A DNA stretch of 19,675 nt from an uncultured bacterium (GTDB lineage: Bacteria; Lernaellota; Lernaellaia; Lernaellales; Lernaellaceae), in NCBI GenBank assembly GCA_964534375.1, contig CAZHPN010000114.1, positions 1 through 19,675 of the forward strand. Reading direction: 5' to 3'. Positions 5,969 to 19,674 of the stretch are shown here, piece after piece; within the stretch, counting starts at the first letter, position 1; each line of letters starts with the position of its first letter. The position numbers were made by a program, and so were the translations under genes. The notes under the pieces are model-generated. The model had not been told where the DNA came from and did no database searches. It was given only the letters and a program-made list of their open reading frames with translations.

Positions 5969-7162
5969 TCATGGCAGGCTTTTCAGCAGGTTCTCGCCCT
6001 CGGCCGGCCGGCCCGTCACGCGATACACCTCCGCGAGGTTCTTCGCGCACGTCACGGTCGACGGATGCTTCTCGCCCAGCGTCTGGCGATAAATCGCCAA
6101 GGCCCGCTTGAACAACGGCTCGGCCGCGGCGTACCGCAGCCGCGAACAATAGAGCGCGCCGATGTTGTTGTACGACGCCGCGGTGTCCGGATGCATTTCG
6201 CCCAGCGCCTTGAGCCGGATGTCCAGCGCCCGCCGATACAACGGCTCGGCCTGATCGTAACGGGCCGTGAGCCGGTACAACTCGGCGAGATTGTCGAACG
6301 AGGCCGCCGTGTCGGGGTGCTGGTCGCCGAGATCGCGCCGGCGGATTTCCAGCGCCTTCTTGAAGAGCGGCTCGGCCTCGGCGACGCGGCCCGCGGCCAT
6401 ATAGAGCACGCCGAGATTGTTGTCGGGCGTCGCCGTGAAAACGTGATCCTCGCCCAGCGCCTTGCGGTAGATCGCCAGCGCCTCTTTGTAAAGCGGCTCG
6501 GCTTCGGCCGGCCGGCCCGTGGCGCGGAGCAGTTCGGCCAAATCGTTGCAGGCGCTGGCGGTGTCGGCGTGCGCCTCGCCGAGCGTCTTGCGCCGCACGG
6601 CCAGCGCCGTTTTCAGCAGCGGTTCGGCCGGCGCGTAGCGGCCCTGGGCCGTCAGCAGCAGGCCGAGGTTGTTGCTATGGGTCGCCGCGTCCGGCGTGTT
6701 CTCGGCCCGCAGTTGGCGATCGATGTCCAGCGCCTTTTGGTACAGCGGCTCGGCCTCGGCGTAGCGGCCGGCGACGCGGTAGAGTTCGGCCAAATTGTCA
6801 TACGCGGCCGCGGTGTCGGCGGCCCGTTCGCCCAGCGCCTTGCGCCGGATTTCCAGCGCCTTGACGAACAACGGCTCGGCGTCGGCGTAGCGCCCCGCGG
6901 CGCGATCCAGTTCCGCCAGCGCGGTGGCCGACGCCGCCGTGTTCAGATGGCGTTCGCCCCACACCTGCCGCGCCAGGCTCAAGGCCTGCCGCGCCGCCGC
7001 GATGCCCTCGTCGTAGCGGCCGGCGTGATAGGCCTGCCGCGCGCGGTCCGTCAGTTGCCGCCATTGCTCCGCGTCCGTCGTCTGGGCGTAACCGCGCGGC
7101 GAAAGCAGCGCCGCCGCCGCGACAAACACAGCCAACGCGAACAACATTTTTCTTGTCGCCAT
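5969..7162 (-). CDS. Secreted tetratricopeptide-repeat protein (42-aa kinesin-light-chain-type TPRs, about 8-9 repeats)
   Basis: Repeats of the form TAASxxNLAELYxxxGRYxEAEPLxxxALxIRRxxLGExHPD. Signal peptide MATRKMLFALAVFVAAAALLSPRGYA. RBS GAGGT before 7162. Confidence 0.9.
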   Translation of the reverse strand: MATRKMLFALAVFVAAAALLSPRGYAQTTDAEQWRQLTDRARQAYHAGRYDEGIAAARQALSLARQVWGERHLNTAASATALAELDRAAGRYADAEPLFVKALEIRRKALGERAADTAAAYDNLAELYRVAGRYAEAEPLYQKALDIDRQLRAENTPDAATHSNNLGLLLTAQGRYAPAEPLLKTALAVRRKTLGEAHADTASACNDLAELLRATGRPAEAEPLYKEALAIYRKALGEDHVFTATPDNNLGVLYMAAGRVAEAEPLFKKALEIRRRDLGDQHPDTAASFDNLAELYRLTARYDQAEPLYRRALDIRLKALGEMHPDTAASYNNIGALYCSRLRYAAAEPLFKRALAIYRQTLGEKHPSTVTCAKNLAEVYRVTGRPAEGENLLKSLP

Positions 7163-7241
7163 CGCCGACCTCGCGGCCTGCCCGCAATCGTTGACTGTTT
7201 CCGGACGTCGCCGGCCCCGCTCCCCGCCGCCAGCGGAGACG

Positions 7242-7270
7242 ATCATGTCGGAAAAAGGGGGAAACCGCAA
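7242..7270 (-). promoter_or_regulatory. Candidate sigma70 promoter for the TPR gene
   Basis: Minus strand TTGCGG-17 bp-CATGAT, 80 bp upstream of the start codon. Confidence 0.4.
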
Positions 7271-7286
7271 TTGATTGGCCATTTTT

Positions 7287-9518: not shown

Positions 9519-9606
9519 ACCACAGAGGCACAGCGGGCACAGAGGAGCACAGAGGATTTAAACATCGATTTCTCTGTGCGTCTCCGTGTTCTCTGGGTCT
9601 CTGTGG
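9515..9606. repeat. CACAGAG/CTCTGTG palindromic tandem-repeat element, copy 1
   Basis: ttgaaccacagaggcacagcgggcacagaggagcacagag, then an AT-rich spacer, then ctctgtgcgtctccgtgttctctgggtctctgtgg. Lies between convergent purB and POT genes. Confidence 0.85.
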
Positions 9607-9689
9607 CGATTATTCATGCTTTTCGGTTGCGGCCGAAGGCCGCGTTGTGCAATCTGCGGATCAACATCACATTTACGCGCACAGCGCGC

Positions 9690-11186: not shown

Positions 11187-11263
11187 TTGAACCACAGAGC
11201 CACAGAGGACGCAGAGTTTATCAATGTTTCAGTCTCTATGACCTCTGTGCCTCTGTGGTTCGA
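11187..11263. repeat. CACAGAG/CTCTGTG palindromic tandem-repeat element, copy 2
   Basis: ttgaaccacagagccacagaggacgcagag, spacer, ctctatgacctctgtgcctctgtggttcga. The first 13 bp are identical to copy 1. Lies between the porin 3' end and the POT 5' end. Confidence 0.85.
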
Positions 11264-11378: not shown

Positions 11379-12866
11379 TCAAATGCGGACGTGGAACCGC
11401 ACGCCGAAGACGCCCACCGGGCCGCGGTCGGCGTTCATGCCCGGGTTGAAAATGCCCTGCGCGTCGAGCGTCAGTTCCAGATAGCGCCAGAGGCCGAACA
11501 CATAGTAGCTCTCGATCACCGTTTCGGTCGCCCGCCGCAGGCCGCCGTCGCCAAGCTGGTAGGTGACGCCGCCCGCGGCGAGATATTTGCCGTCGATCGG
11601 CGATATGCCGTTCAGCGCTACGGCTACGGCGAGGCGGTCGTCGGGCCGCTGCCAGGGTTCGCCGGCGATCTCGGCGCCCGCCGAAAGGTCGCGATCGATT
11701 TCGGTGAACACGAAGACCTCGCTCTTGCCGTCGCTGGCCCCGATGCGGAAGAAGGCGTTCACCCATTTGCCGAACTGCTGATCCACGAGCAGGCCGACGC
11801 CCTGCTTGCGCGCGCCGATCTTTTCGACCGCCGTGACGTCGGGCGCCTTGCCCGGCGCGGCCTCGTTGAGGGCGTCGGCGTAACTGCCCATGTGCGCCCA
11901 ATTGGACCAATAAAGCAGCTTGGCCGAACCCGGTTGGTCCAGCGGCCGGTACCGCGCCTCGCCCTCGGCCATGACCGAGCCGTTGTGGTGGACGTCCCAA
12001 TCAAGATTCGGGGCGTTGGCCGCCGTTGGCATCGCGGCGGTTCCCGCCCGCAGCGCGAAGTCCGGGTGCTCCAGCGAAATCACGCCGCCGGTCGTGTAGC
12101 CGCGGGTGTCGGCCGGGTAGTCCCAAGAGCCCTGTTCCATCAGCGACCAGTTGAGAAAATGGCGGCGTGGGTCGGCAGCCACCGCGCTGGCGTCAAAGAA
12201 ATCGTTCATCGCGAACTCGCCGAGCACGATTTCCAGCCGAAACGGCGTGTTCGCTTCCCGCACGGCAAATGGGCCGGGACCCGTGGGCGCGAAGCGTTCC
12301 TCGAACTCGGCTTTTTCGTCGGTGGGCGCGCCGCCGAGGGGAATGGATTGCCTAATGTACGCGCGAGCCACGTAAGGCAAAATGCCAACCTTGGCCACGC
12401 GCACGATTTCGCCGTTGACGTAGCCGGCAAGGCCGCTGACGTTCGGCATTCCGCCGCCGTCGGCGAACTCGGGCTCGGCGACGACCGACGCGCCGGGCCA
12501 AAGGCGGAAGGCGCCGTAAAGCGTGGCCGTCACCGACCACCCGAGCGACGGTTTCGGTCCGTAGCTGATCGCCGGATTGTCATAGGGCGATTTCATCCGG
12601 GTGTTGACCTGGGCGACGCCGGTCGTCTGGCCGCCGAATAGCCACCATTCGCCGAAGCCGTAGGGGTGTTCCTCGGCGGGGGCCGCGGCGGCGGCGTTTT
12701 CGGCGGGTTTCGGAGCGCCGTTGCCGCCCAGCTCCTCGGCAAGGGCGGCCCGCGGTGACGCGGCCCGCGAGAGAGTCAAGGCGATCACGGTCGTCAGAAG
12801 AACCCTGCCGATAAAGCGGAAGCATTCAAACAAACATAAGCGTTTGCGAGAGCGAAGATTGAACAT
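11379..12866 (-). CDS. Outer-membrane carbohydrate-selective (OprB family) / MnoP-like porin
   Basis: Signal-peptide-like N-terminus, PYVARAYIRQ, FLNWSLM, WDYPADTRGYT (recalled from MnoP-like porins), ETVIESYY, NPGMNADRGP and an amphipathic C-terminal strand GVRFHVRI. Exact start is uncertain. Confidence 0.85.
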   Translation of the reverse strand: MFNLRSRKRLCLFECFRFIGRVLLTTVIALTLSRAASPRAALAEELGGNGAPKPAENAAAAAPAEEHPYGFGEWWLFGGQTTGVAQVNTRMKSPYDNPAISYGPKPSLGWSVTATLYGAFRLWPGASVVAEPEFADGGGMPNVSGLAGYVNGEIVRVAKVGILPYVARAYIRQSIPLGGAPTDEKAEFEERFAPTGPGPFAVREANTPFRLEIVLGEFAMNDFFDASAVAADPRRHFLNWSLMEQGSWDYPADTRGYTTGGVISLEHPDFALRAGTAAMPTAANAPNLDWDVHHNGSVMAEGEARYRPLDQPGSAKLLYWSNWAHMGSYADALNEAAPGKAPDVTAVEKIGARKQGVGLLVDQQFGKWVNAFFRIGASDGKSEVFVFTEIDRDLSAGAEIAGEPWQRPDDRLAVAVALNGISPIDGKYLAAGGVTYQLGDGGLRRATETVIESYYVFGLWRYLELTLDAQGIFNPGMNADRGPVGVFGVRFHVRI

Positions 12867-12886
12867 CGAATCAACTTCTTCTATTG

Positions 12887-12904
12887 TTAGCCTGAGCTAC
12901 CTAA
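12887..12904. promoter_or_regulatory. Candidate DtxR/MntR-like operator
   Basis: TTAGGTAGCTCAGGCTAA (minus strand) has TTAG...CTAA inverted ends and sits immediately downstream of the predicted porin -10 box. Confidence 0.35.
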
Positions 12905-12933
12905 AGTATGTGCACCAATTTGCGCAAAGTCAA
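12905..12933 (-). promoter_or_regulatory. Candidate proximal sigma70 promoter of the porin gene
   Basis: Minus strand TTGACT-17 bp-CATACT in an AT-rich patch. The palindrome TTTGCGCAAA (12919-12928) lies essentially in the spacer. Confidence 0.55.
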
Positions 12934-13138
12934 ACATGCATTGTAATTCGGTATTCGGCGCGAAGGCCTGAAGTTCGGGAGAAGGGGCGGCGCTAGGCGG
13001 ACCGGCGGGAAACGACGGTCAGCCAGTCGGCGCTTTTTCCCCGAGCCGGGGGCGCTTCGCTGCTACTAGGTCCGTCGTCCATCATCGTCTCTCTTCCGCG
13101 CGATTTTTCGCGCTCGAACAATGTTGATTTCGGGCGGG

Positions 13139-13167
13139 ATTTTACTCGCTCGGCGCAAGGCTGTCAA
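13139..13167 (-). promoter_or_regulatory. Near-consensus sigma70 promoter
   Basis: Minus strand TTGACA-17 bp-TAAAAT (11/12 consensus), pointing toward the porin gene about 270 bp away. Confidence 0.75.
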
Positions 13168-13203
13168 CATAATTCCAGGGCAAATAATTGCAGCGCCGGT
13201 TCG

Positions 13204-13232
13204 TTGACTTCCCTGCCGGCGTGTTCTACTAC
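13204..13232 (+). promoter_or_regulatory. Candidate sigma70 promoter for POT copy 2
   Basis: TTGACT-17 bp-TACTAC, back-to-back with the minus-strand promoter. The -10 lacks the conserved last T. Confidence 0.4.
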
Positions 13233-13280
13233 AGGCGCAAGCCAAGCTGCACGATAACCGCACGAACAAAGGGGCGCCGT

Positions 13281-14846
13281 ATGTCGCAGACGGAACGGAT
13301 CCCGGCCGGTCATCCGAAAGGCCTTTACCTGCTGTTCACCGTCGAGATGTGGGAACGTTTTTCGTACTACGGTATGCGGGCCATTCTCGTCTTGTTCATG
13401 GTCAAGTTTCTCGTGTTCACGACCGAACAGGCCGGTGATCTGTACGGCTGGTACACCAGCCTCGTTTATCTGACGCCGCTGCTCGGCGGTTATCTGGCGG
13501 ACCGCTATCTCGGCCAGCGGCGCAGCATCGTCATCGGCGCGCTCGTCATGGCGCTCGGCGAGTTCGCGTTGATGGGCGCCGGCCTGTCGATGACGCCGAA
13601 GGAACAGGTCGTGCCGATCGTGCTGACCAAAGATCAGGCGGCGGCCTTCGCGGCGAATCCTGACGCGGCGCTGGAGCTCGCCAGCCCGCAGAAAGACGCG
13701 GTCGGCAGCGTGTGGAAAAACTTCAAGTCCGCGACCGCGCGCGTCGCGAAGGAAAACGTCGATGGGAAAGGGTGCGTCGCGCTGACCGTGCGCGGCGACG
13801 GGCTCGTCTCGACGGCGATGCCCGCCATTCCCGGGCGGACGCTGACGCTGTTCGGCCTGGGCCTCGCGCTGCTGATTCTCGGCAACGGTTTCTTCAAGCC
13901 GAACATTTCGACCACCGTCGGCCAGCTTTACGGGCAGAACGATCCGCGGCGCGATGGCGCCTTCACGATCTTCTACATGGGCATCAACCTCGGCGCGTTC
14001 TTCTCGCCGCTGGTCTGCGGCACGCTCGGCGAAAAATACGGGTGGCACTGGGGATTCGCGGCGGCCGGCACGGGCATGCTGGCCGGGCTGACGGTCTATT
14101 TCTGGGGCCAGCATAAATATCTCGGCGAGGCCGGGTTGCATCCGGCCGGGGCCCCGAAAAAGACGGGGGCCGCGGCGCACGAACCCTTGACGAAAGCCGA
14201 ATGGCAGCGCATCGCCGTCGTGTTCGTGCTGGTGTTTTTCAATATCTTCTTCTGGTCCGCGTTCGAGCTGGCCGGCAGCGCGCTGACGCTCTTCGCCGAC
14301 CGCTCGACCGACCGCGTGCTGCCGATCGTCAATTGGGAATTCCCCGCCAGTTGGTACCAATCGGTCAACCCGGCGTTGATTTTCATCCTGGCGCCGCTGT
14401 TCTCGGGCCTGTGGCTGAAACTGGCGCGCGCCCGGCGGGAGCCGTCGACGCCCAACAAGATGGCGCTGGGTCTGGCGATGCTGACGGCGGGCATGCTGGT
14501 GATGGTCTTCGCGGCAAATCTGGTCGGGAAGAGCGGCGGCAAGGTCAGCGCGCTGTGGCTGACCGGCTGCTATTTCATGTGCACCCTGGGCGAACTTTGC
14601 CTCTCGCCGGTCGGGCTGTCGGCGGTCACGAAACTTGCCCCGGCGCGCTTCGGCTCCCTGATGATGGGCACGTGGTTCTTGTCGAACGCCGCGGCGAACT
14701 ACCTGCAGGGCGCGTTCGCCGGCCAATACGACAATCTGCCGCTGACGACGTTCTACCTGGTCCCGGTCGGCGCGGCGAGCGTTTCGGCGATCGTGCTTTT
14801 GGCGCTGGCGCCGAAGCTGCGGCAATGGATGCACGGCATCCACTGA
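13281..14846 (+). CDS. POT/PTR family proton-dependent oligopeptide transporter (MFS), copy 2, with a large TM3-TM4 insertion
   Basis: GHPKGL, canonical EMWERFSYYGMRA, GGYLADRYLG, GNGFFKPNIS, FYMGINLG and GELCLSPVG. Confidence 0.97.
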   Translation: MSQTERIPAGHPKGLYLLFTVEMWERFSYYGMRAILVLFMVKFLVFTTEQAGDLYGWYTSLVYLTPLLGGYLADRYLGQRRSIVIGALVMALGEFALMGAGLSMTPKEQVVPIVLTKDQAAAFAANPDAALELASPQKDAVGSVWKNFKSATARVAKENVDGKGCVALTVRGDGLVSTAMPAIPGRTLTLFGLGLALLILGNGFFKPNISTTVGQLYGQNDPRRDGAFTIFYMGINLGAFFSPLVCGTLGEKYGWHWGFAAAGTGMLAGLTVYFWGQHKYLGEAGLHPAGAPKKTGAAAHEPLTKAEWQRIAVVFVLVFFNIFFWSAFELAGSALTLFADRSTDRVLPIVNWEFPASWYQSVNPALIFILAPLFSGLWLKLARARREPSTPNKMALGLAMLTAGMLVMVFAANLVGKSGGKVSALWLTGCYFMCTLGELCLSPVGLSAVTKLAPARFGSLMMGTWFLSNAAANYLQGAFAGQYDNLPLTTFYLVPVGAASVSAIVLLALAPKLRQWMHGIH

Positions 14847-14970
14847 CCGGACGGAAGCGGCCGGCGAAGTATCCGCCGCGCGCTTGACGAACCGGCGCCG
14901 ATTCGCTAAATGCAAACCATCGCGCTCGGCGCCGAGCGCAACTATTCGCGGCATTGGTGGGGGGGGCTTC

Positions 14971-16230
14971 GTGAACCGACAAACGTCGGCAATCCGCGTT
15001 TTCCTTTTCGCTTGCCTGGCGCTGTTCGCGGCCGGGCGAGCGTACGCCGCCGGCGAGCCCGCGCCGCCGCCGCTCCCCCTGATGCCGCCGACCGATGTGC
15101 GCGCGTTCGACACGCCGTCCGACGGCGGCGGTTCGATCACGATCGAATTCGGCCCGTCGCCCGACGAAGCTGCGCCGAACGACCCGGTGGTCAGCTACGC
15201 CGTCGAACGCGCGGCCTGCAAACCCGAAAAGTTTTCGTTCACCGGCGCGACCTCGGCGCGCCTGCTCGCCCCGCGGCGGCGCGCCCGCGAAACGCCCGCG
15301 CTGACCATCGTGGACAGCGACACGCAGGACGGCGCCGACTACTTCTATCGCGTCGTCGCCGTCGCCCGCAGCGGCCGGCGCAGCGATCCAGTCGCCATCG
15401 GGCCGGTGCAGTCGAAGGCGCAGTGGTTCGCCGTCAACAAGCTGAATCTGCTGTGCCTCGGCGCGATCGTTTCGCTGGCGATCGTGTTCTTCATCGAAGC
15501 GATCCGCCGGGGCAAGAAGCCGTTCATCCGCAAGATCGCCGGCCTCGACGCGGTGGACGAAGCGATCGGCCGCGCGACGGAAATGGGCCGACCGATCCTT
15601 TTCGTGCCCGGCATCAACGACATGAACGACGTGCAGACCGTCGCCGCGGTCATCATCCTGGGCCGCATTGCGCGCACGATCGCCGAATACGACACGCGGC
15701 TGATGATGCCCAACACGCGCAGCCTGGTGATGGTCGCCGCGCGCGAAACGGTCAAGGAGGCGTACACCGCGGTCGGCCGGCCGGATTCGTACACCGACGA
15801 GATGATCACCTATCTGACCGACGAGCAGCTCGGCTACGCGGCGGGCGTCACGGGCATGATGCTGCGCGAAAAACCGGCGACCTGCTTCTACCTCGGCGGC
15901 TTTTACGCCGAGAGCCTGATTCTGGCCGAGGCCGGCAATTCCATCGGCGCGATCCAGATCGCCGGCACCGCCAACCCCGACCAGTTGCCGTTTTTCGTCG
16001 CCGCCTGCGATTACACCTTGCTCGGCGAGGAACTCTTCGCGGCCAGCGCCTATCTCTCGAACGAGCCGAAGCAACTCGGCAGTTTGAAGGGGCAGGATGT
16101 GGGCAAGGCGATCGCCATGCTCGTCATCCTGATCGGCACGGCGGTGGAAACGGCGGCGACGCTGGCGAACTCCGACCTGTTGCAGCGGATCGCCGATTTC
16201 ATCCACGGCCTGTTCCGCGTGGCGGCGTAG
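14971..16230 (+). CDS. Membrane protein: signal peptide + fibronectin type III-like domain + TM + DUF6754-like domain + C-terminal TM
   Basis: GTG start after a G-rich RBS and signal peptide ending RAYA. FN3-like segment (PPTDVRAFD...VVSYAVER...DYFYRVVAV). IRKIAGLDAVDEAIGRATEMGRP and QLPFFVAACDYTLLGEELFAASAYL match my recollection of DUF6754 proteins. Confidence 0.8.
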   Translation: MNRQTSAIRVFLFACLALFAAGRAYAAGEPAPPPLPLMPPTDVRAFDTPSDGGGSITIEFGPSPDEAAPNDPVVSYAVERAACKPEKFSFTGATSARLLAPRRRARETPALTIVDSDTQDGADYFYRVVAVARSGRRSDPVAIGPVQSKAQWFAVNKLNLLCLGAIVSLAIVFFIEAIRRGKKPFIRKIAGLDAVDEAIGRATEMGRPILFVPGINDMNDVQTVAAVIILGRIARTIAEYDTRLMMPNTRSLVMVAARETVKEAYTAVGRPDSYTDEMITYLTDEQLGYAAGVTGMMLREKPATCFYLGGFYAESLILAEAGNSIGAIQIAGTANPDQLPFFVAACDYTLLGEELFAASAYLSNEPKQLGSLKGQDVGKAIAMLVILIGTAVETAATLANSDLLQRIADFIHGLFRVAA

Positions 16231-16242
16231 GGGGACGGCGGA

Positions 16243-16929
16243 ATGCTCACACGCAGCGTGCCGATCCTGATCACCTTCGTCGTGGGCGTGGTGCTCGTGG
16301 TCAGTTTTTTCATTCCGCACCAGCCGTTCGGCAAACTCGGCGAAGATTTTTCGGTGTTCTTCGACATTATCGCGTCCTTCGCCTTCTTTCTTGGCGGCGG
16401 CAACCTCGTGCGCATCCACCTCGAAACCGTCGGCAAACGCAAACCCGGCTGGGGATATTCCGGCATCACGCTCGTCTCGTTCTTCGTCACGCTGTTCATC
16501 GGTTTTTCGAAAATCGGCAATCCGTGGGGCATCCAGGGCGACTTGTCGGAATACGGCTCGCCGTTCTACGTGATTTACGAATCCATTTTCACGCCGGCCT
16601 CAGCGACGATGTACGCGCTGCTCGCGTTTTACGTCGCCTCGGCGAGTTACCGCGCTTTTCGCGCCAAGAATCTCGAGGCGACGGTGCTGCTGATCGCGGC
16701 GTTCGTCATCCTGCTCGGCCGCACGTTCGTGGGCGCCGTGCTGACGGCCTGGCTGCCGGACTCGCTGGCGTTCCTGCGGATTCCCAATTTGGCGAACTGG
16801 ATTCTGGTCACGCCCAATCTTTCCGGGCAGCGCGCGATCATGATCGGCATCTCGCTCGGCATCATCTCCACCAGCCTGAAACTGATCCTCGGCATCGAGC
16901 GCAGTTATCTGGGCGGCGACGGCGAATAG
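16243..16929 (+). CDS. Uncharacterised polytopic membrane protein (about 5-6 TM)
   Basis: Highly hydrophobic 228 aa. Motifs ATMYALLAFYVASASYRAFR and LKLILGIERSYLGG. Starts 12 bp after the preceding gene. Confidence 0.85.
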   Translation: MLTRSVPILITFVVGVVLVVSFFIPHQPFGKLGEDFSVFFDIIASFAFFLGGGNLVRIHLETVGKRKPGWGYSGITLVSFFVTLFIGFSKIGNPWGIQGDLSEYGSPFYVIYESIFTPASATMYALLAFYVASASYRAFRAKNLEATVLLIAAFVILLGRTFVGAVLTAWLPDSLAFLRIPNLANWILVTPNLSGQRAIMIGISLGIISTSLKLILGIERSYLGGDGE

Positions 16930-16938
16930 GGGCGGACG

Positions 16939-18009
16939 GTGGCGAAGAAAACATTCTATGACCGCGTCCGCGACATCGACCGCCGGCTGATCTTCCTTTT
17001 CATTGCGCTTTCCGTGGCGATTCCGCTGATCTTTCACCTGTATTTCCCCGAGACCCCGACGCCGATGACGCAGGCGGTGTTCGACAAGATCGAACATCTC
17101 CCGGCCGGCAGCCGCATCCTGATGGATTTCTCCTACGACCCGGCGAGCATGCCCGAGATCGAACCGATGGCCACCGCCTGGGTGCGCCACTGCCTGTTAA
17201 AAAAGCACAAGATCTACGCCATCGCGCTCTGGCCGGTCGGGCCGCAGTTGGCGAGCGACACCTTCAACGCGGCGGTCAATTTTTTGCGCAACCTCGACCC
17301 CGAGCGCCGCATCGTCTACGGCGAGGACTACGTCAATCTCGGCTTCAAGTCCGGCGCCCAGGGCGTGATCAACGTGCTGTTGACCAACCTCGGCACGCTT
17401 TATTCGACCGACATCAACGGCGCGAACATCGCCGACATTCCGATGATGAACGGCGTGGTGAACCTCAAGAGCTTCGACCTGATCGCCAGCATCAGCGCCG
17501 GCACGCCGGGCACGAAGGAGCTGATTCAGTTCGGGTCCGTGCCGGCCGGCGTGCCGCTGGTCGCGGGCACGACCTCGGTTTTCGCGCCGCTGCTTTATCC
17601 CTATTATCCGGCGCAGATGCTCGGCATTCTCGGCGGCCTGAAGAGCGCCGCGGAATACGACGCGCTGCTGTTCCGCAAGATCAAACCGCAGTTGCAGGCG
17701 CGGCTGCGCCTGGCGCCGAAGCTGCTGCAGGATGAAATCGCGCAGTTGACCGGCGACCGGTCGCTGGACCCCGCGGCGAAACGCAAGCTGGTCGCCGAAA
17801 AGACCGCGGCGCTGCGCGCCGTGGAAAAAGCCGATCCGGCGACGCTCGGCGACCGCCGGTTGATGGATTTGGCCGGCCCGGTGTTGGGTTACACGCAAAA
17901 GGGCATTTCGCGGATGGGGCCGCAGGCGGTCGCGCACCTGGTGATTGTGCTGTTTATCATCATCGGCAATATCACCTATTTCATCGACAAACGGCGGGGG
18001 CGGCGATGA
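16939..18009 (+). CDS. Uncharacterised membrane protein: N-terminal TM, large soluble alpha/beta domain, C-terminal TM
   Basis: GTG start 9 bp after the previous stop. TM LIFLFIALSVAIPLIF. Motifs YGEDYVNLGF and YPYYPAQMLGILGGLKSAAEY. C-terminal TM AHLVIVLFIIIGNITYF. Confidence 0.85.
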   Translation: MAKKTFYDRVRDIDRRLIFLFIALSVAIPLIFHLYFPETPTPMTQAVFDKIEHLPAGSRILMDFSYDPASMPEIEPMATAWVRHCLLKKHKIYAIALWPVGPQLASDTFNAAVNFLRNLDPERRIVYGEDYVNLGFKSGAQGVINVLLTNLGTLYSTDINGANIADIPMMNGVVNLKSFDLIASISAGTPGTKELIQFGSVPAGVPLVAGTTSVFAPLLYPYYPAQMLGILGGLKSAAEYDALLFRKIKPQLQARLRLAPKLLQDEIAQLTGDRSLDPAAKRKLVAEKTAALRAVEKADPATLGDRRLMDLAGPVLGYTQKGISRMGPQAVAHLVIVLFIIIGNITYFIDKRRGRR

Positions 18010-19127
18010 GCCGGAGCATGGCCGTCAGCCTGGGGTTCCTCGCCGTATTCGCGGCGCTGGCGCTGCTCGGCGCCGTTTTCGGCGGCCTGACCAGCCCCTT
18101 GCCGCGCGCCGACGAGATCAAGTTGACCATGCCCAACAACATGGTCGTGGTCGCGCCGCAGGGGAAGATCAGGCGGGAGGTCGACCCGGCGACGCAGAAA
18201 ACGAAATTCGTGGCCGCCGACGGTTTCCGGATCGTGCGCGAGGTGCCGGCGTCGTACCAGCCGGCCGGCGGCGAGAAGAACCCGTGCATCGCGGCCGACG
18301 AAAAAAAACCGGAACTGATTTTCAAACCCGTGCGACACGAGACGCATTATGGCGCCGTGGTCGCCGGCGACGCGACGATGGAGGAGAAGAATGGCGAGGC
18401 GTACGTGCGCGTGCCCAACGGCGGCAGCCTGATCGAGCGCGTGCGGTCGTTCCGCGGCTTCTGGACGTGGGTGGCCGCGTTTTTGACGCTGGGCATTCTC
18501 AGTTTTCTGTACGACGACAACCCGTTCTACAAGTTCACCGAGCACTTGTTCATTGGGGTCAGCGCGGCGTATTGGATGTGCCTGGCGTTTTGGTCGACGA
18601 TCGTCCCGAACTTGCTGGGCAAGCTTTGGCCCGCGCTCGTCGCGTCGATCAATCCGGGCGTCGGCGGCGAAAAGCGGAACCTGCTTTATCTCGTGCCGTT
18701 GGTGTTCGGGGTGCTGCTGTTGACGCGCCTGACCTCGAAGTTCGGCTGGCTCAGCCGCTGGTCGCTGGCGTTCATCGTCGGCACGACCGCCGGCCTCAAT
18801 TTCGTCGGCTATCTGCAGAGCGATTTCGTCGGCCAGATCGAGGGCTCGATCGGCTCGCTGGTCGCGATCGACCCGGCCAAGGGCGTGCAGTGGGGCGCCA
18901 CGTTCAGCGCGATCGTGCTGTTCGTCGGCGTGCTGACCTGCCTCGTGTATTTCTTCTTTTCGACCGAGCACAAAGGCGTCATGGGCGCCGCCAGCCGCGT
19001 CGGCATCTGGGTGCTGATGATCACCTTCGGCGCCTCGTTCGGCTTCACCGTGATGGGCCGCATTGCGCTGCTCGTGGCGCGGATGGAATTTCTCTTCAAC
19101 GATTGGCTGCACATCATCATTCAGTGA
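18006..19127 (+). CDS. Uncharacterised polytopic membrane protein with an N-terminal soluble extension
   Basis: ATGA overlap with the previous gene. N-terminal hydrophobic segment, hydrophilic domain, then about 6-7 TM with SFLYDDNPFYKFTEHLFIG and LMITFGASFGFTVMGR. Confidence 0.85.
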   Translation: MSRSMAVSLGFLAVFAALALLGAVFGGLTSPLPRADEIKLTMPNNMVVVAPQGKIRREVDPATQKTKFVAADGFRIVREVPASYQPAGGEKNPCIAADEKKPELIFKPVRHETHYGAVVAGDATMEEKNGEAYVRVPNGGSLIERVRSFRGFWTWVAAFLTLGILSFLYDDNPFYKFTEHLFIGVSAAYWMCLAFWSTIVPNLLGKLWPALVASINPGVGGEKRNLLYLVPLVFGVLLLTRLTSKFGWLSRWSLAFIVGTTAGLNFVGYLQSDFVGQIEGSIGSLVAIDPAKGVQWGATFSAIVLFVGVLTCLVYFFFSTEHKGVMGAASRVGIWVLMITFGASFGFTVMGRIALLVARMEFLFNDWLHIIIQ

Positions 19128-19238
19128 ACAGTGAACAGTGAACAATGAACAATGAACAGGGAACAGGGGACAGTCATCAATGCGCGGTTGAGGGGCGGCC
19201 CGCCGTCACTGCTCACTGCTCACTGCTCACTGTTCACT
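19122..19238. repeat. Inverted pair of 7-mer tandem arrays (CAGTGAA)n / (TCACTGY)n; possible bidirectional terminator or stabiliser
   Basis: Seven units cagtgaa x3, caatgaa x2, cagggaa, cagggga (19122-19170), and tcactgc x3, tcactgt, tcact (19206-19238). Confidence 0.9.
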
Positions 19239-19674
19239 TTTCAGCGAACGACTCGCCCATCTTGACGCACCACGTGCGGCAATTTTCGACGGTCACGCAA
19301 TCGCCGTCGCGCGCGACCGTTGGCGGGGGCGCCGCGTCGGCGTCGGAGCGGCTGTTGCGGTATAGCGCCGACTGCCCATCGCGGAAACGGCCCTCGGTCA
19401 CGAGCCGCCAACCGGCGGCCTCGTCGAGGCCGATCCGTGGCCGGGTCTCGTTCAGGAGCGACGAATCGTCGAACGTGAACAGCAGCAGATTCGGCCAGGT
19501 CCTCACCGCTTCCAGATTTGGGAACGGCGAATGGTCGCCGGGGGCGACGCGGATCATCTGCGTGTAGAAATCGTCCAGCAACAAGCACCATTTGGCGCCG
19601 TGCAGGCTGGTGAGCGCCGCGCAGTCTTTGTCCGTCACCACCGGGCGGAAATCGTCGTAGGGCACCAGAATCTT
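19234..19674 (-). CDS. Partial hypothetical protein (5' end outside window)
   Basis: Frame is open from the window edge (KILVPYDDF...) to TGA at 19236-19234, with GC3-rich codons. No recognisable motif. Confidence 0.6.
   Translation of the reverse strand, partial: KILVPYDDFRPVVTDKDCAALTSLHGAKWCLLLDDFYTQMIRVAPGDHSPFPNLEAVRTWPNLLLFTFDDSSLLNETRPRIGLDEAAGWRLVTEGRFRDGQSALYRNSRSDADAAPPPTVARDGDCVTVENCRTWCVKMGESFAEK

Follow-up and report, generated by a model that had tools for sequence, protein, structure and literature searches.

Parts of the locus studied here resemble several described families and systems. The locus is a cassette of four membrane-protein genes, g1 to g4, which occupies positions 14,971 to 19,127 of a contig (C114) from an uncultured bacterium of the phylum Lernaellota; the window, meaning the whole stretch of DNA analyzed, is this entire contig of 19,675 bp, and it belongs to a genome of 6.3 Mb in 381 contigs that is 94% complete. 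The first gene encodes a full-length member of the DUF6754 family (PF20539), a family without described function. For the ATPase that we associate with the cassette, the nearest described proteins are GlmL/MutL, the accessory protein of glutamate/methylaspartate mutase, for which a reactivase-type helper role with glutamate mutase has been proposed, and its Or-4 relative of ornithine degradation. Our protein likewise belongs to PF13941 and carries ASKHA motifs, but it falls below three NCBIfam cut-offs, has a C-terminal extension of about 120 amino acids (aa), lies beside membrane genes and a gene that we call X375, and has no mutase in its scanned flanks. The N-terminus of X375 shows sub-threshold similarity to NqrA/RnfC and to biotinyl/lipoyl domains, and NqrA is also a soluble protein encoded with membrane subunits; X375 nevertheless has no Fe-S or flavin motifs, and its candidate lysine is not among the invariant columns of the family. 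In ECF-type ABC importers one energizing module serves several S components, which is reminiscent of the loci of Zixibacteria type, where one ATPase gene set is seen in the flanks beside three paralogous cassettes; the ATPase of the present system, however, is of actin/Hsp70 fold and not a P-loop protein, and no ABC, EcfT or S-component family was matched. FtsEX/MacB and MreB-MreC-MreD, of which MreB is an ASKHA protein, also link a cytoplasmic ATPase to membrane proteins with periplasmic domains, but our system matches none of these families and has no conserved cell-wall neighbors in its flanks.

An earlier note on this DNA had read the operon as encoding an uncharacterized, ATPase-less complex of membrane proteins. 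The first part of that reading holds: the uncharacterized multi-subunit membrane system is real, its four families co-occur strictly, and they fit no curated family of a characterized system. The second part is not supported by our results: the operon is probably not ATPase-less, and an actin/Hsp70-type ATPase, accompanied by two helper proteins, is its likely motor. We found that these gene families are inherited as a set and, as a rule, co-transcribed as S110-GlmL-X375-g1-g2-g3-g4. We consider it rather probable that g1 to g4 are the membrane module of a machine coupled to the GlmL-like ATPase; the narrower claim that this machine is a translocase is offered tentatively. These soluble genes are invisible from the window alone because they are encoded on another contig, C26, and the operon of the window is uninterpretable in isolation.

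The soluble partners were identified by a Pfam scan of 103 open reading frames (ORFs) flanking 21 loci, in which a 'MutL' gene (PF13941, the GlmL family) stood by the cassettes at 8 of the 21 loci, and an unannotated gene of 375 aa, X375, lay between the PF13941 gene and the cassettes at 3 of those 8. In the genome of the window, a soluble trio forms an S110-GlmL-X375 operon on contig C26 (L083:6997-10290, minus strand), with one copy each of GlmL and X375; the trio is followed by genes of the purine-nucleoside-phosphorylase and PfkB-kinase families. The GlmL-like protein scored 412 bits against PF13941 (cut-off 27) but remained under the cut-offs of its best NCBIfam matches, GlmL NF040745 (226 vs 475) and the ornithine-degradation model NF040744 (197 vs 600), as well as of TIGR01319 (172.6 vs 204). 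It reads DCGSTTTK, DIGGATTD and SGGVLSH, which we take to be the phosphate-1, phosphate-2 and adenosine motifs of the ASKHA superfamily, and it is 61-73% identical across phyla. The third member of the trio, S110, has about 110 aa and no match in Pfam; it lies directly upstream of GlmL, with a 4-nt overlap in this genome, and is present in 13 other loci. In several loci of Zixibacteria type, an additional fast-evolving protein of about 250-275 aa, also without a Pfam match, is encoded between the GlmL-like gene and X375 (L062:191-970, L047:240-995, L074:139-924 and L046:598-1431, all on the minus strand).

X375 itself has 374 aa in this genome, and its family alignment (A5) contains 62 invariant columns. 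Among 31 members searched at E <= 0.1, sub-threshold domain matches were found to Biotin_lipoyl (20/31), RnfC_N (18/31) and NQRA_N (10/31), together with a KOW-like C-terminus (9/31); the rest of the protein is otherwise without a match. The best E-values were 6.8e-6 for RnfC_N and 5.8e-4 for NQRA_N, and the copy of this genome reached 17.3 bits against RnfC_N, for which the cut-off is 25.6. Weak echoes of X375 in the PDB agree with a barrel-sandwich hybrid, and these sub-threshold similarities suggest a barrel-sandwich/KOW-like protein. Taken at face value, the RnfC_N and NQRA_N matches could also point to a redox-driven ion pump like Rnf or Nqr, with X375 supplying an NqrA/RnfC-type N-terminal domain. 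We find this hardly credible: the similarity stays below the RnfC_N cut-off, no Cys motif occurs in any of the seven proteins and g2 is devoid of cysteine altogether, no Rnf/Nqr membrane-subunit, flavin or Fe-S family was matched, the membrane-subunit families being absent from g1 to g4, and the domain is a generic barrel-sandwich hybrid that resembles Biotin_lipoyl in 20 of the 31 members as well.

The genetic ties between the soluble genes and the cassette were followed at three levels, namely gene order, co-occurrence and fusion. By tblastn, GlmL and X375 lie beside cassettes in 17 of 80 related loci, mostly of Zixibacteria type, and in two Planctomycetota metagenome-assembled genomes (MAGs) X375 is immediately upstream of g1. 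Sixteen further loci were fetched, 15 from Planctomycetota and one from the phylum of the window; 11 of them carry GlmL-X375-g1-g2-g3-g4, while X375-g1 alone was present in three, GlmL-X375-g1 in one, and g1-g4 alone in one. The genomes with X375-g1 (G320, G063 and G259) keep GlmL, X375-g1 and g3 at three separate places. The full operon order S110-GlmL-X375-g1-g2-g3-g4 was found in Planctomycetota and, within the phylum of the window, in a single genome. Among 301 evenly sampled Planctomycetota genomes, DUF6754 was detected in 79 and X375 in 78, with both present in 75, DUF6754 only in 4, X375 only in 3 and neither in 219; where both were present, 52 genomes had X375 within 4.5 kb of DUF6754, another 4 had it 4.5-10 kb away, and in the remaining 19 the two were unlinked. 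All 17 species genomes of the window's phylum have DUF6754 and PF13941, and 15 have X375; the two genomes without an X375 match have their GlmL match on the minus strand, some 450 bases or less from contig position 1, so that X375 would lie off the assembly.

Fused proteins add to this pattern. The longer relatives of X375 form 75 clusters, of which 74 contain PF13941, and 49 clusters cover at least 91% of X375 in GlmL::X375 fusions of about 660-1020 aa, which occur in many lineages and come from sources that include Planctomycetota and Neomarinimicrobiota. One protein, P0045, a one-member cluster, has X375 in frame with the signal helix, fibronectin type III (FN3) domain and DUF6754 of g1. 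In some lineages g3 and g4 are likewise joined, as in P0092 (hhalign probability 100, E 6e-61). Apparent single frames of 970-990 aa spanning GlmL and X375 in the genome-search tables were set aside, since they arise where the frames of the two genes overlap in GC-rich DNA. Operon structure (11/16 fetched loci), co-occurrence (75 of 301 genomes with both parts vs 7 with one) and fusions tie the cassette genetically to an ASKHA ATPase of the GlmL/MutL family, and the description of the complex as ATPase-less is not supported by this evidence.

Several observations weigh against our reading. DUF6754 occurs without detected X375 in four Planctomycetota genomes, one of which is only 1.7 Mb, and the reverse is seen in three; moreover, the co-occurrence counts overstate independence because the sampled genomes are related. 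The soluble genes are unlinked to g1-g4 in the genome of the window and in 19 of the 75 Planctomycetota with both, and the split arrangement of the window is a minority pattern, though not a rare one. A sequencing error could account for the X375::g1 fusion P0045, P0003 has a linker that resembles translated intergenic DNA, and some of the GlmL::X375 fusions may be gene-calling artefacts. The data point to neither a substrate nor a path for translocation, g2 and g4 match no family or sequence of solved structure, and we know of no GlmL family member with demonstrated ATPase activity. A complex prediction for residues 183-366 of g1 (the DUF6754 part, alignment A1) with X375 (A5) gave a score of 0.00 (mark 0.32), which weighs neither way on binding. 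The same unlinked arrangement, an operon of four genes here without a soluble partner, and the lack of a nucleotide-binding motif in g1-g4 are what the version of the earlier note would lead one to expect, in which the four membrane proteins alone form a self-contained secondary transporter or signaling complex. That version nevertheless seems very improbable to us: the cassette is co-inherited almost without exception with the GlmL-like ATPase and X375, both modules share an operon in most lineages, X375 is possibly fused to g1, and a Pfam search of g1-g4 revealed no output domain of the kind of a histidine kinase, receiver or GGDEF.

The cassette is itself strongly conserved. Relatives of g1 were sought by scanning one genome per prokaryote species; 126 were found and 80 loci kept, whose record titles name MAGs of Zixibacteria, Eisenbacteria, 'Ignavibacteria', Phycisphaerae and Planctomycetota. 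With the window proteins as tblastn queries, matches fell on a single strand in all 80 loci, and the gene order was a substring of repeated g1-g2-g3-g4 in 79, the one exception being an artefact of overlapping high-scoring segment pairs (HSPs); the strict co-occurrence of the four families, proposed as a check in the earlier note, is thus borne out. Three complete tandem cassettes (12 genes) are present in 31 of the 80 loci and a single cassette in 14, and the incomplete patterns of the other 35 mostly fit truncation at the end of the locus. In a maximum-likelihood tree built from the DUF6754 region (61 rows, none dropped), the three cassette positions form three clades with supports of 100/98, 98/93 and 100/100, and the copy of the window pairs with two MAGs (100/94) beside single copies of Eisenbacteria type (94/86).

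The family is also very large. Homologues of g1, which bear only the names 'DUF6754 domain-containing' or 'fibronectin type III domain-containing protein', make up at least 8000 clusters at 90% identity (E <= 0.001), and a profile of g3, for which there is no Pfam model, retrieved 5239 representatives at 50% identity with E <= 0.001, of which 3974 had E <= 1e-10. Genome and protein searches together confirm the statement of the earlier note that such blocks are present in many uncultured bacteria: the system occurs in all genomes sampled from the phylum of the window, in one quarter of the Planctomycetota sampled, and in MAGs labeled Zixibacteria and Eisenbacteria. DUF6754 had no match in 14 control genomes of well-known organisms. 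The conservation of the parts between phyla is comparable to that of core cell machinery; in the open full-text literature, as distinct from subscription journals, we found no description of DUF6754/PF20539, of PF13941, of TIGR01319 or of GlmL as actin-like.

In the window, the four genes are arranged as the earlier note had them, all on the forward strand and separated by 12, 9 and -4 nt. The first, g1 (14971-16230), starts with GTG and encodes 419 aa; residues 150-419, the part searched, matched a 419-aa database record with 100% identity and coverage. Gene g2 (16243-16929) encodes a polytopic membrane protein of 228 aa without a family; g3 (16939-18009) a protein of 356 aa in which a transmembrane (TM) helix, a Rossmann-like alpha/beta domain, a helical insert and a second TM helix follow one another; and g4 (18006-19127) a protein of 373 aa with an N-terminal TM helix, an extra domain and a polytopic core. 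Hydropathy indicates three hydrophobic helices in g1, about 5-6 in g2, two strong terminal helices plus one weak segment within the soluble domain in g3, and one N-terminal helix plus about 5-6 in g4, which, together with AlphaFold2 models, agrees with the picture of four membrane proteins, two of them polytopic and two with a soluble alpha/beta domain.

The DUF6754 label, which the earlier note had given, proved correct: g1 matches PF20539 over model positions 2-251 of 257 with E 1.6e-119 and 398.2 bits (cut-off 27). In contrast to g1, the products of g2 to g4 had no Pfam or NCBIfam match even at E <= 1 and no PDB sequence by profile search. A single echo of g2 in the PDB sequences, MrpF at E 0.4, is at chance level, and for g2 and g4 the ESM Atlas returned 'hypothetical protein' clusters exclusively. 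No Pfam or NCBIfam model of ABC/ECF, TRAP, PTS or Mrp/Mnh systems matched g1-g4 at E <= 1. The motif scan of g1-g4 was negative for Walker A, CxxCH, CxxC and CxxCxxC, in line with the view that the four products have no Walker A, Fe-S or heme motif. Internal homology was considered and rejected between g1 and g3, between g2 and g4, and between X375 and g1, with hhalign probabilities of 3.2, 0.4 and 0.2, respectively.

The AlphaFold2 model of g1 (pLDDT 89.3) consists of a helix (residues 4-20), an FN3 sandwich (41-148), a TM helix (155-179), an alpha/beta domain (190-363) and a long helix (366-399); we read the first of these helices as a signal or anchor and the last as a C-terminal TM helix. 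Within the gene, the FN3 ectodomain spans 15091-15414 and the DUF6754 domain (residues 149-398), the best-conserved part of the cassette, spans 15415-16164. The presence of FN3, which had been noticed from the sequence, is backed both by a PDB profile search, in which titin FN3 matched with E 1.7e-30, and by a VIA fold search (Z 12.0, rmsd 1.9 A, 94 residues aligned, within model residues 37-150). With full-length g1, the Foldseek and VIA lists were filled by FN3 matches, masking the fold of DUF6754. Across 61 homologues, 49 columns are invariant, every one within residues 187-379, and many of them are G, D, E, R, K or T. The ectodomain is highly variable among the relatives, extending from a single FN3 up to open frames of 900-1350 aa, and the long ectodomains have no Pfam domain. 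In g4, an extra domain of about 125 aa (within the N-terminal residues 1-145) is missing from most homologues, the conserved polytopic core is formed by residues 146-373, and a hydropathy map places the invariant polar residues in loops rather than mid-membrane.

The model of g3 (pLDDT 94.2) places the alpha/beta domain (42-232) and the helical insert between TM helices at 15-31 and 321-355. Foldseek gave no match for g3 at E <= 0.001, and its best VIA matches were generic Rossmann-like folds, with Z 9.0 to 1kjn and Z of about 8 to sirtuins, TrkA/KtrA and transhydrogenase dIII; a functional reading of the fold was dropped. As to topology, the basic residues invoked for g3 are present, with 6 K/R in residues 1-16 and 5 in 350-356, while the orientation itself is inferred from the positive-inside rule. 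By this rule, the DUF6754 domain would be cytoplasmic and the FN3 of g1 exported, as the charges support, and the alpha/beta domain of g3 is probably periplasmic. In some Planctomycetota, g2 has a large insertion, as in L070:8132-9184, which encodes 350 aa vs the usual 228 or so, and at L084:8473-10308 g2 appears as two HSPs that are 1.1 kb apart.

In the reading that we prefer, a soluble module of S110, the GlmL-like ASKHA ATPase and X375 would act with the membrane module g1-g4 as a machine of seven gene products. The four membrane proteins would assemble as one inner-membrane hetero-oligomer, the conserved face of which, made up of the DUF6754 domain of g1 and conserved loops of g2 and g4, would be cytoplasmic and may serve as the docking site of the GlmL-X375 pair. 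Binding or hydrolysis of ATP could then alter the conformation of the membrane module, with an effect on the periplasmic side at the g3 domain and the FN3 of g1. Where a lineage has three cassettes, several paralogous membrane modules might share one ATPase module. Our best guess for the output would be that a small substrate is moved through the inner membrane at the expense of ATP. Should an ASKHA ATPase indeed power a membrane complex, ATP would be coupled to membrane work in a new way, and the annotation 'glutamate mutase L' on several of these genes would need correction. Possible, though doubtful at present, is a hitherto undescribed class of primary-active membrane machines powered by an ASKHA rather than a P-loop or P-type ATPase, with paralogous four-subunit modules on one shared soluble motor and with a housekeeping role.

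A translocase would account for the two polytopic subunits, for the externally tethered alpha/beta domain and for the finding of three paralogous cassettes with a single ATPase gene set in the flanks seen. Peptide-transport genes of three families near the system are a further point in its favor. Upstream of g1 in the window, at 13278-14846 on the forward strand, lies the gene of a POT/PTR2 peptide:H+ symporter (Pfam PTR2, E 2.6e-62; TIGR00924, E 2.6e-98), and at 3 of 105 other loci the flanks of the system contain peptide-transport genes of other kinds (OPT, family-5 binding protein, Opp-type ATPase), namely OPT in L093 and the family-5 binding protein in L098 and L106. The earlier suggestion that the POT neighbor hints at peptide substrates is weak all the same, as tblastn found POT next to the cassette in none of the 80 related loci and the other peptide-transport genes are limited to those three. 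No consistent neighbor beyond the seven system genes emerged from the flank surveys, which comprised 152 ORFs (103 + 49).

The conservation of the proteins can also be read in terms of an envelope force-transmission machine, in which the ASKHA ATPase would drive changes through the TM helices of g1 and g3 to the periplasm or cell wall with no solute moved, working like FtsEX, Tol-Pal or MreBCD without belonging to those families. This would fit the highly variable ectodomain of g1 on a near-invariant cytoplasmic domain with its 49 invariant columns, the position of the invariant polar residues of g4 in loops, the presence of the system in all 17 genomes of the phylum, as expected of a housekeeping envelope function, and the identity of 61-73% of the ATPase across phyla. 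We nevertheless judge it fairly unlikely, since the 152 flanking ORFs include no recurrent peptidoglycan, outer-membrane or division gene, an enzyme partner in the periplasm is not apparent, and three paralogous cassettes per ATPase pair are better explained by different substrates.

The invariant columns of DUF6754 resemble the conservation of an enzyme, and the named relatives of the ATPase (NF040745 and NF040744) act in amino-acid catabolism. Together with the peptide-transport genes of three families in the window and in 3/105 loci, these features speak for a membrane-anchored metabolic enzyme complex, in which DUF6754 and/or X375 would be catalytic, the GlmL-like protein would be a kinase or reactivase-type helper, and a compound derived from amino acids or peptides, or else a lipid, would be acted on at the cytoplasmic face of the membrane. 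Such a complex appears improbable in view of the GlmL-like protein being under all NCBIfam GlmL cut-offs and of the motif scan, which detected no cofactor motif. Neither a B12-dependent mutase nor a B12-binding mutase subunit was found by the C26 copy or among the 152 flanking ORFs, where the sole B12-binding match (L042) is a radical SAM protein, and two periplasmic domains and two polytopic subunits would be left without a role.

Among the minor observations on the flanks, lactate-racemase genes occur near cassettes at four loci, with LarA-like plus LDH/MDH genes in two (L024:834-3023 and L072:926-3129), LarC and LarB in one (L002:7521-9450) and LarC in one (L003:11121-11729), which may be due to chance. 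A PIG-L deacetylase gene is close to the system in three Planctomycetota loci (L094, L096 and L091:10795-11703); in two of these, PIG-L and a family-2 glycosyltransferase lie on opposite sides (L094:3678-4493 and 11839-12693; L096:4312-5100 and 12402-13388), in genomes that are probably related. Broken copies of system genes were seen in two genomes: a DUF6754 match interrupted by two TGA codons in a planctomycetotal genome (G123:C20:254535-255250), and an X375 in fragments with TGA in a genome of the window's phylum (G008:C3:133243-134360); either may be a pseudogene or an assembly error. In the window, the interval between POT and g1 contains a perfect GC-rich palindrome at 14919-14942 with a stem of 10 pairs, which may be the terminator of POT or an operator.

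The repeat hairpin that had been noted to close the operon lies at 19122-19243, between g4 and a convergent minus-strand gene. Its arms consist of (CAGTGAA)x7.6 at 19122-19174 and (TCACTGC)x4.7 at 19206-19238, and its predicted RNA fold reaches -49.8 kcal/mol (z -3.5), with none of 200 shuffles equally stable. The hairpin is real by both fold and repeat arms, yet it is without specificity to this operon: the triple heptamer, with at most 2 mismatches, has 222 copies genome-wide vs 1 for the reversed control pattern, and the stretch 19122-19243 has a contig depth of 733 vs about 7.5 elsewhere in run X1, a wetland metagenome. It looks like one copy of a REP-like dispersed family of intergenic repeats. 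Tandem-repeat hairpins of a second family, with (CACAGAGG)n opposite (CCTCTGTG)n, are present at window positions 9520-9607 and 11190-11260, one copy lying 3' of an adenylosuccinate lyase gene and the other between two minus-strand genes, and gene ends in this genome seem to be regularly marked by hairpins with short-tandem-repeat arms.

Short contigs of RNA libraries from two wetland metatranscriptome studies match g1, g3, g4 and POT, covering short pieces of the window, and give a weak hint that g1, g3 and g4 are expressed. Two further tandem repeats complete the survey of the window. An 8-bp unit, CTCCCAGC, is repeated 8.6 times at 2151-2221 in apparently non-coding DNA, and a repeat with a period of 252 bp (2.2 copies, 71% match) at 6349-6901 lies inside a minus-strand TPR-repeat gene (5969-7282), its period being due to the TPR units of the encoded protein.

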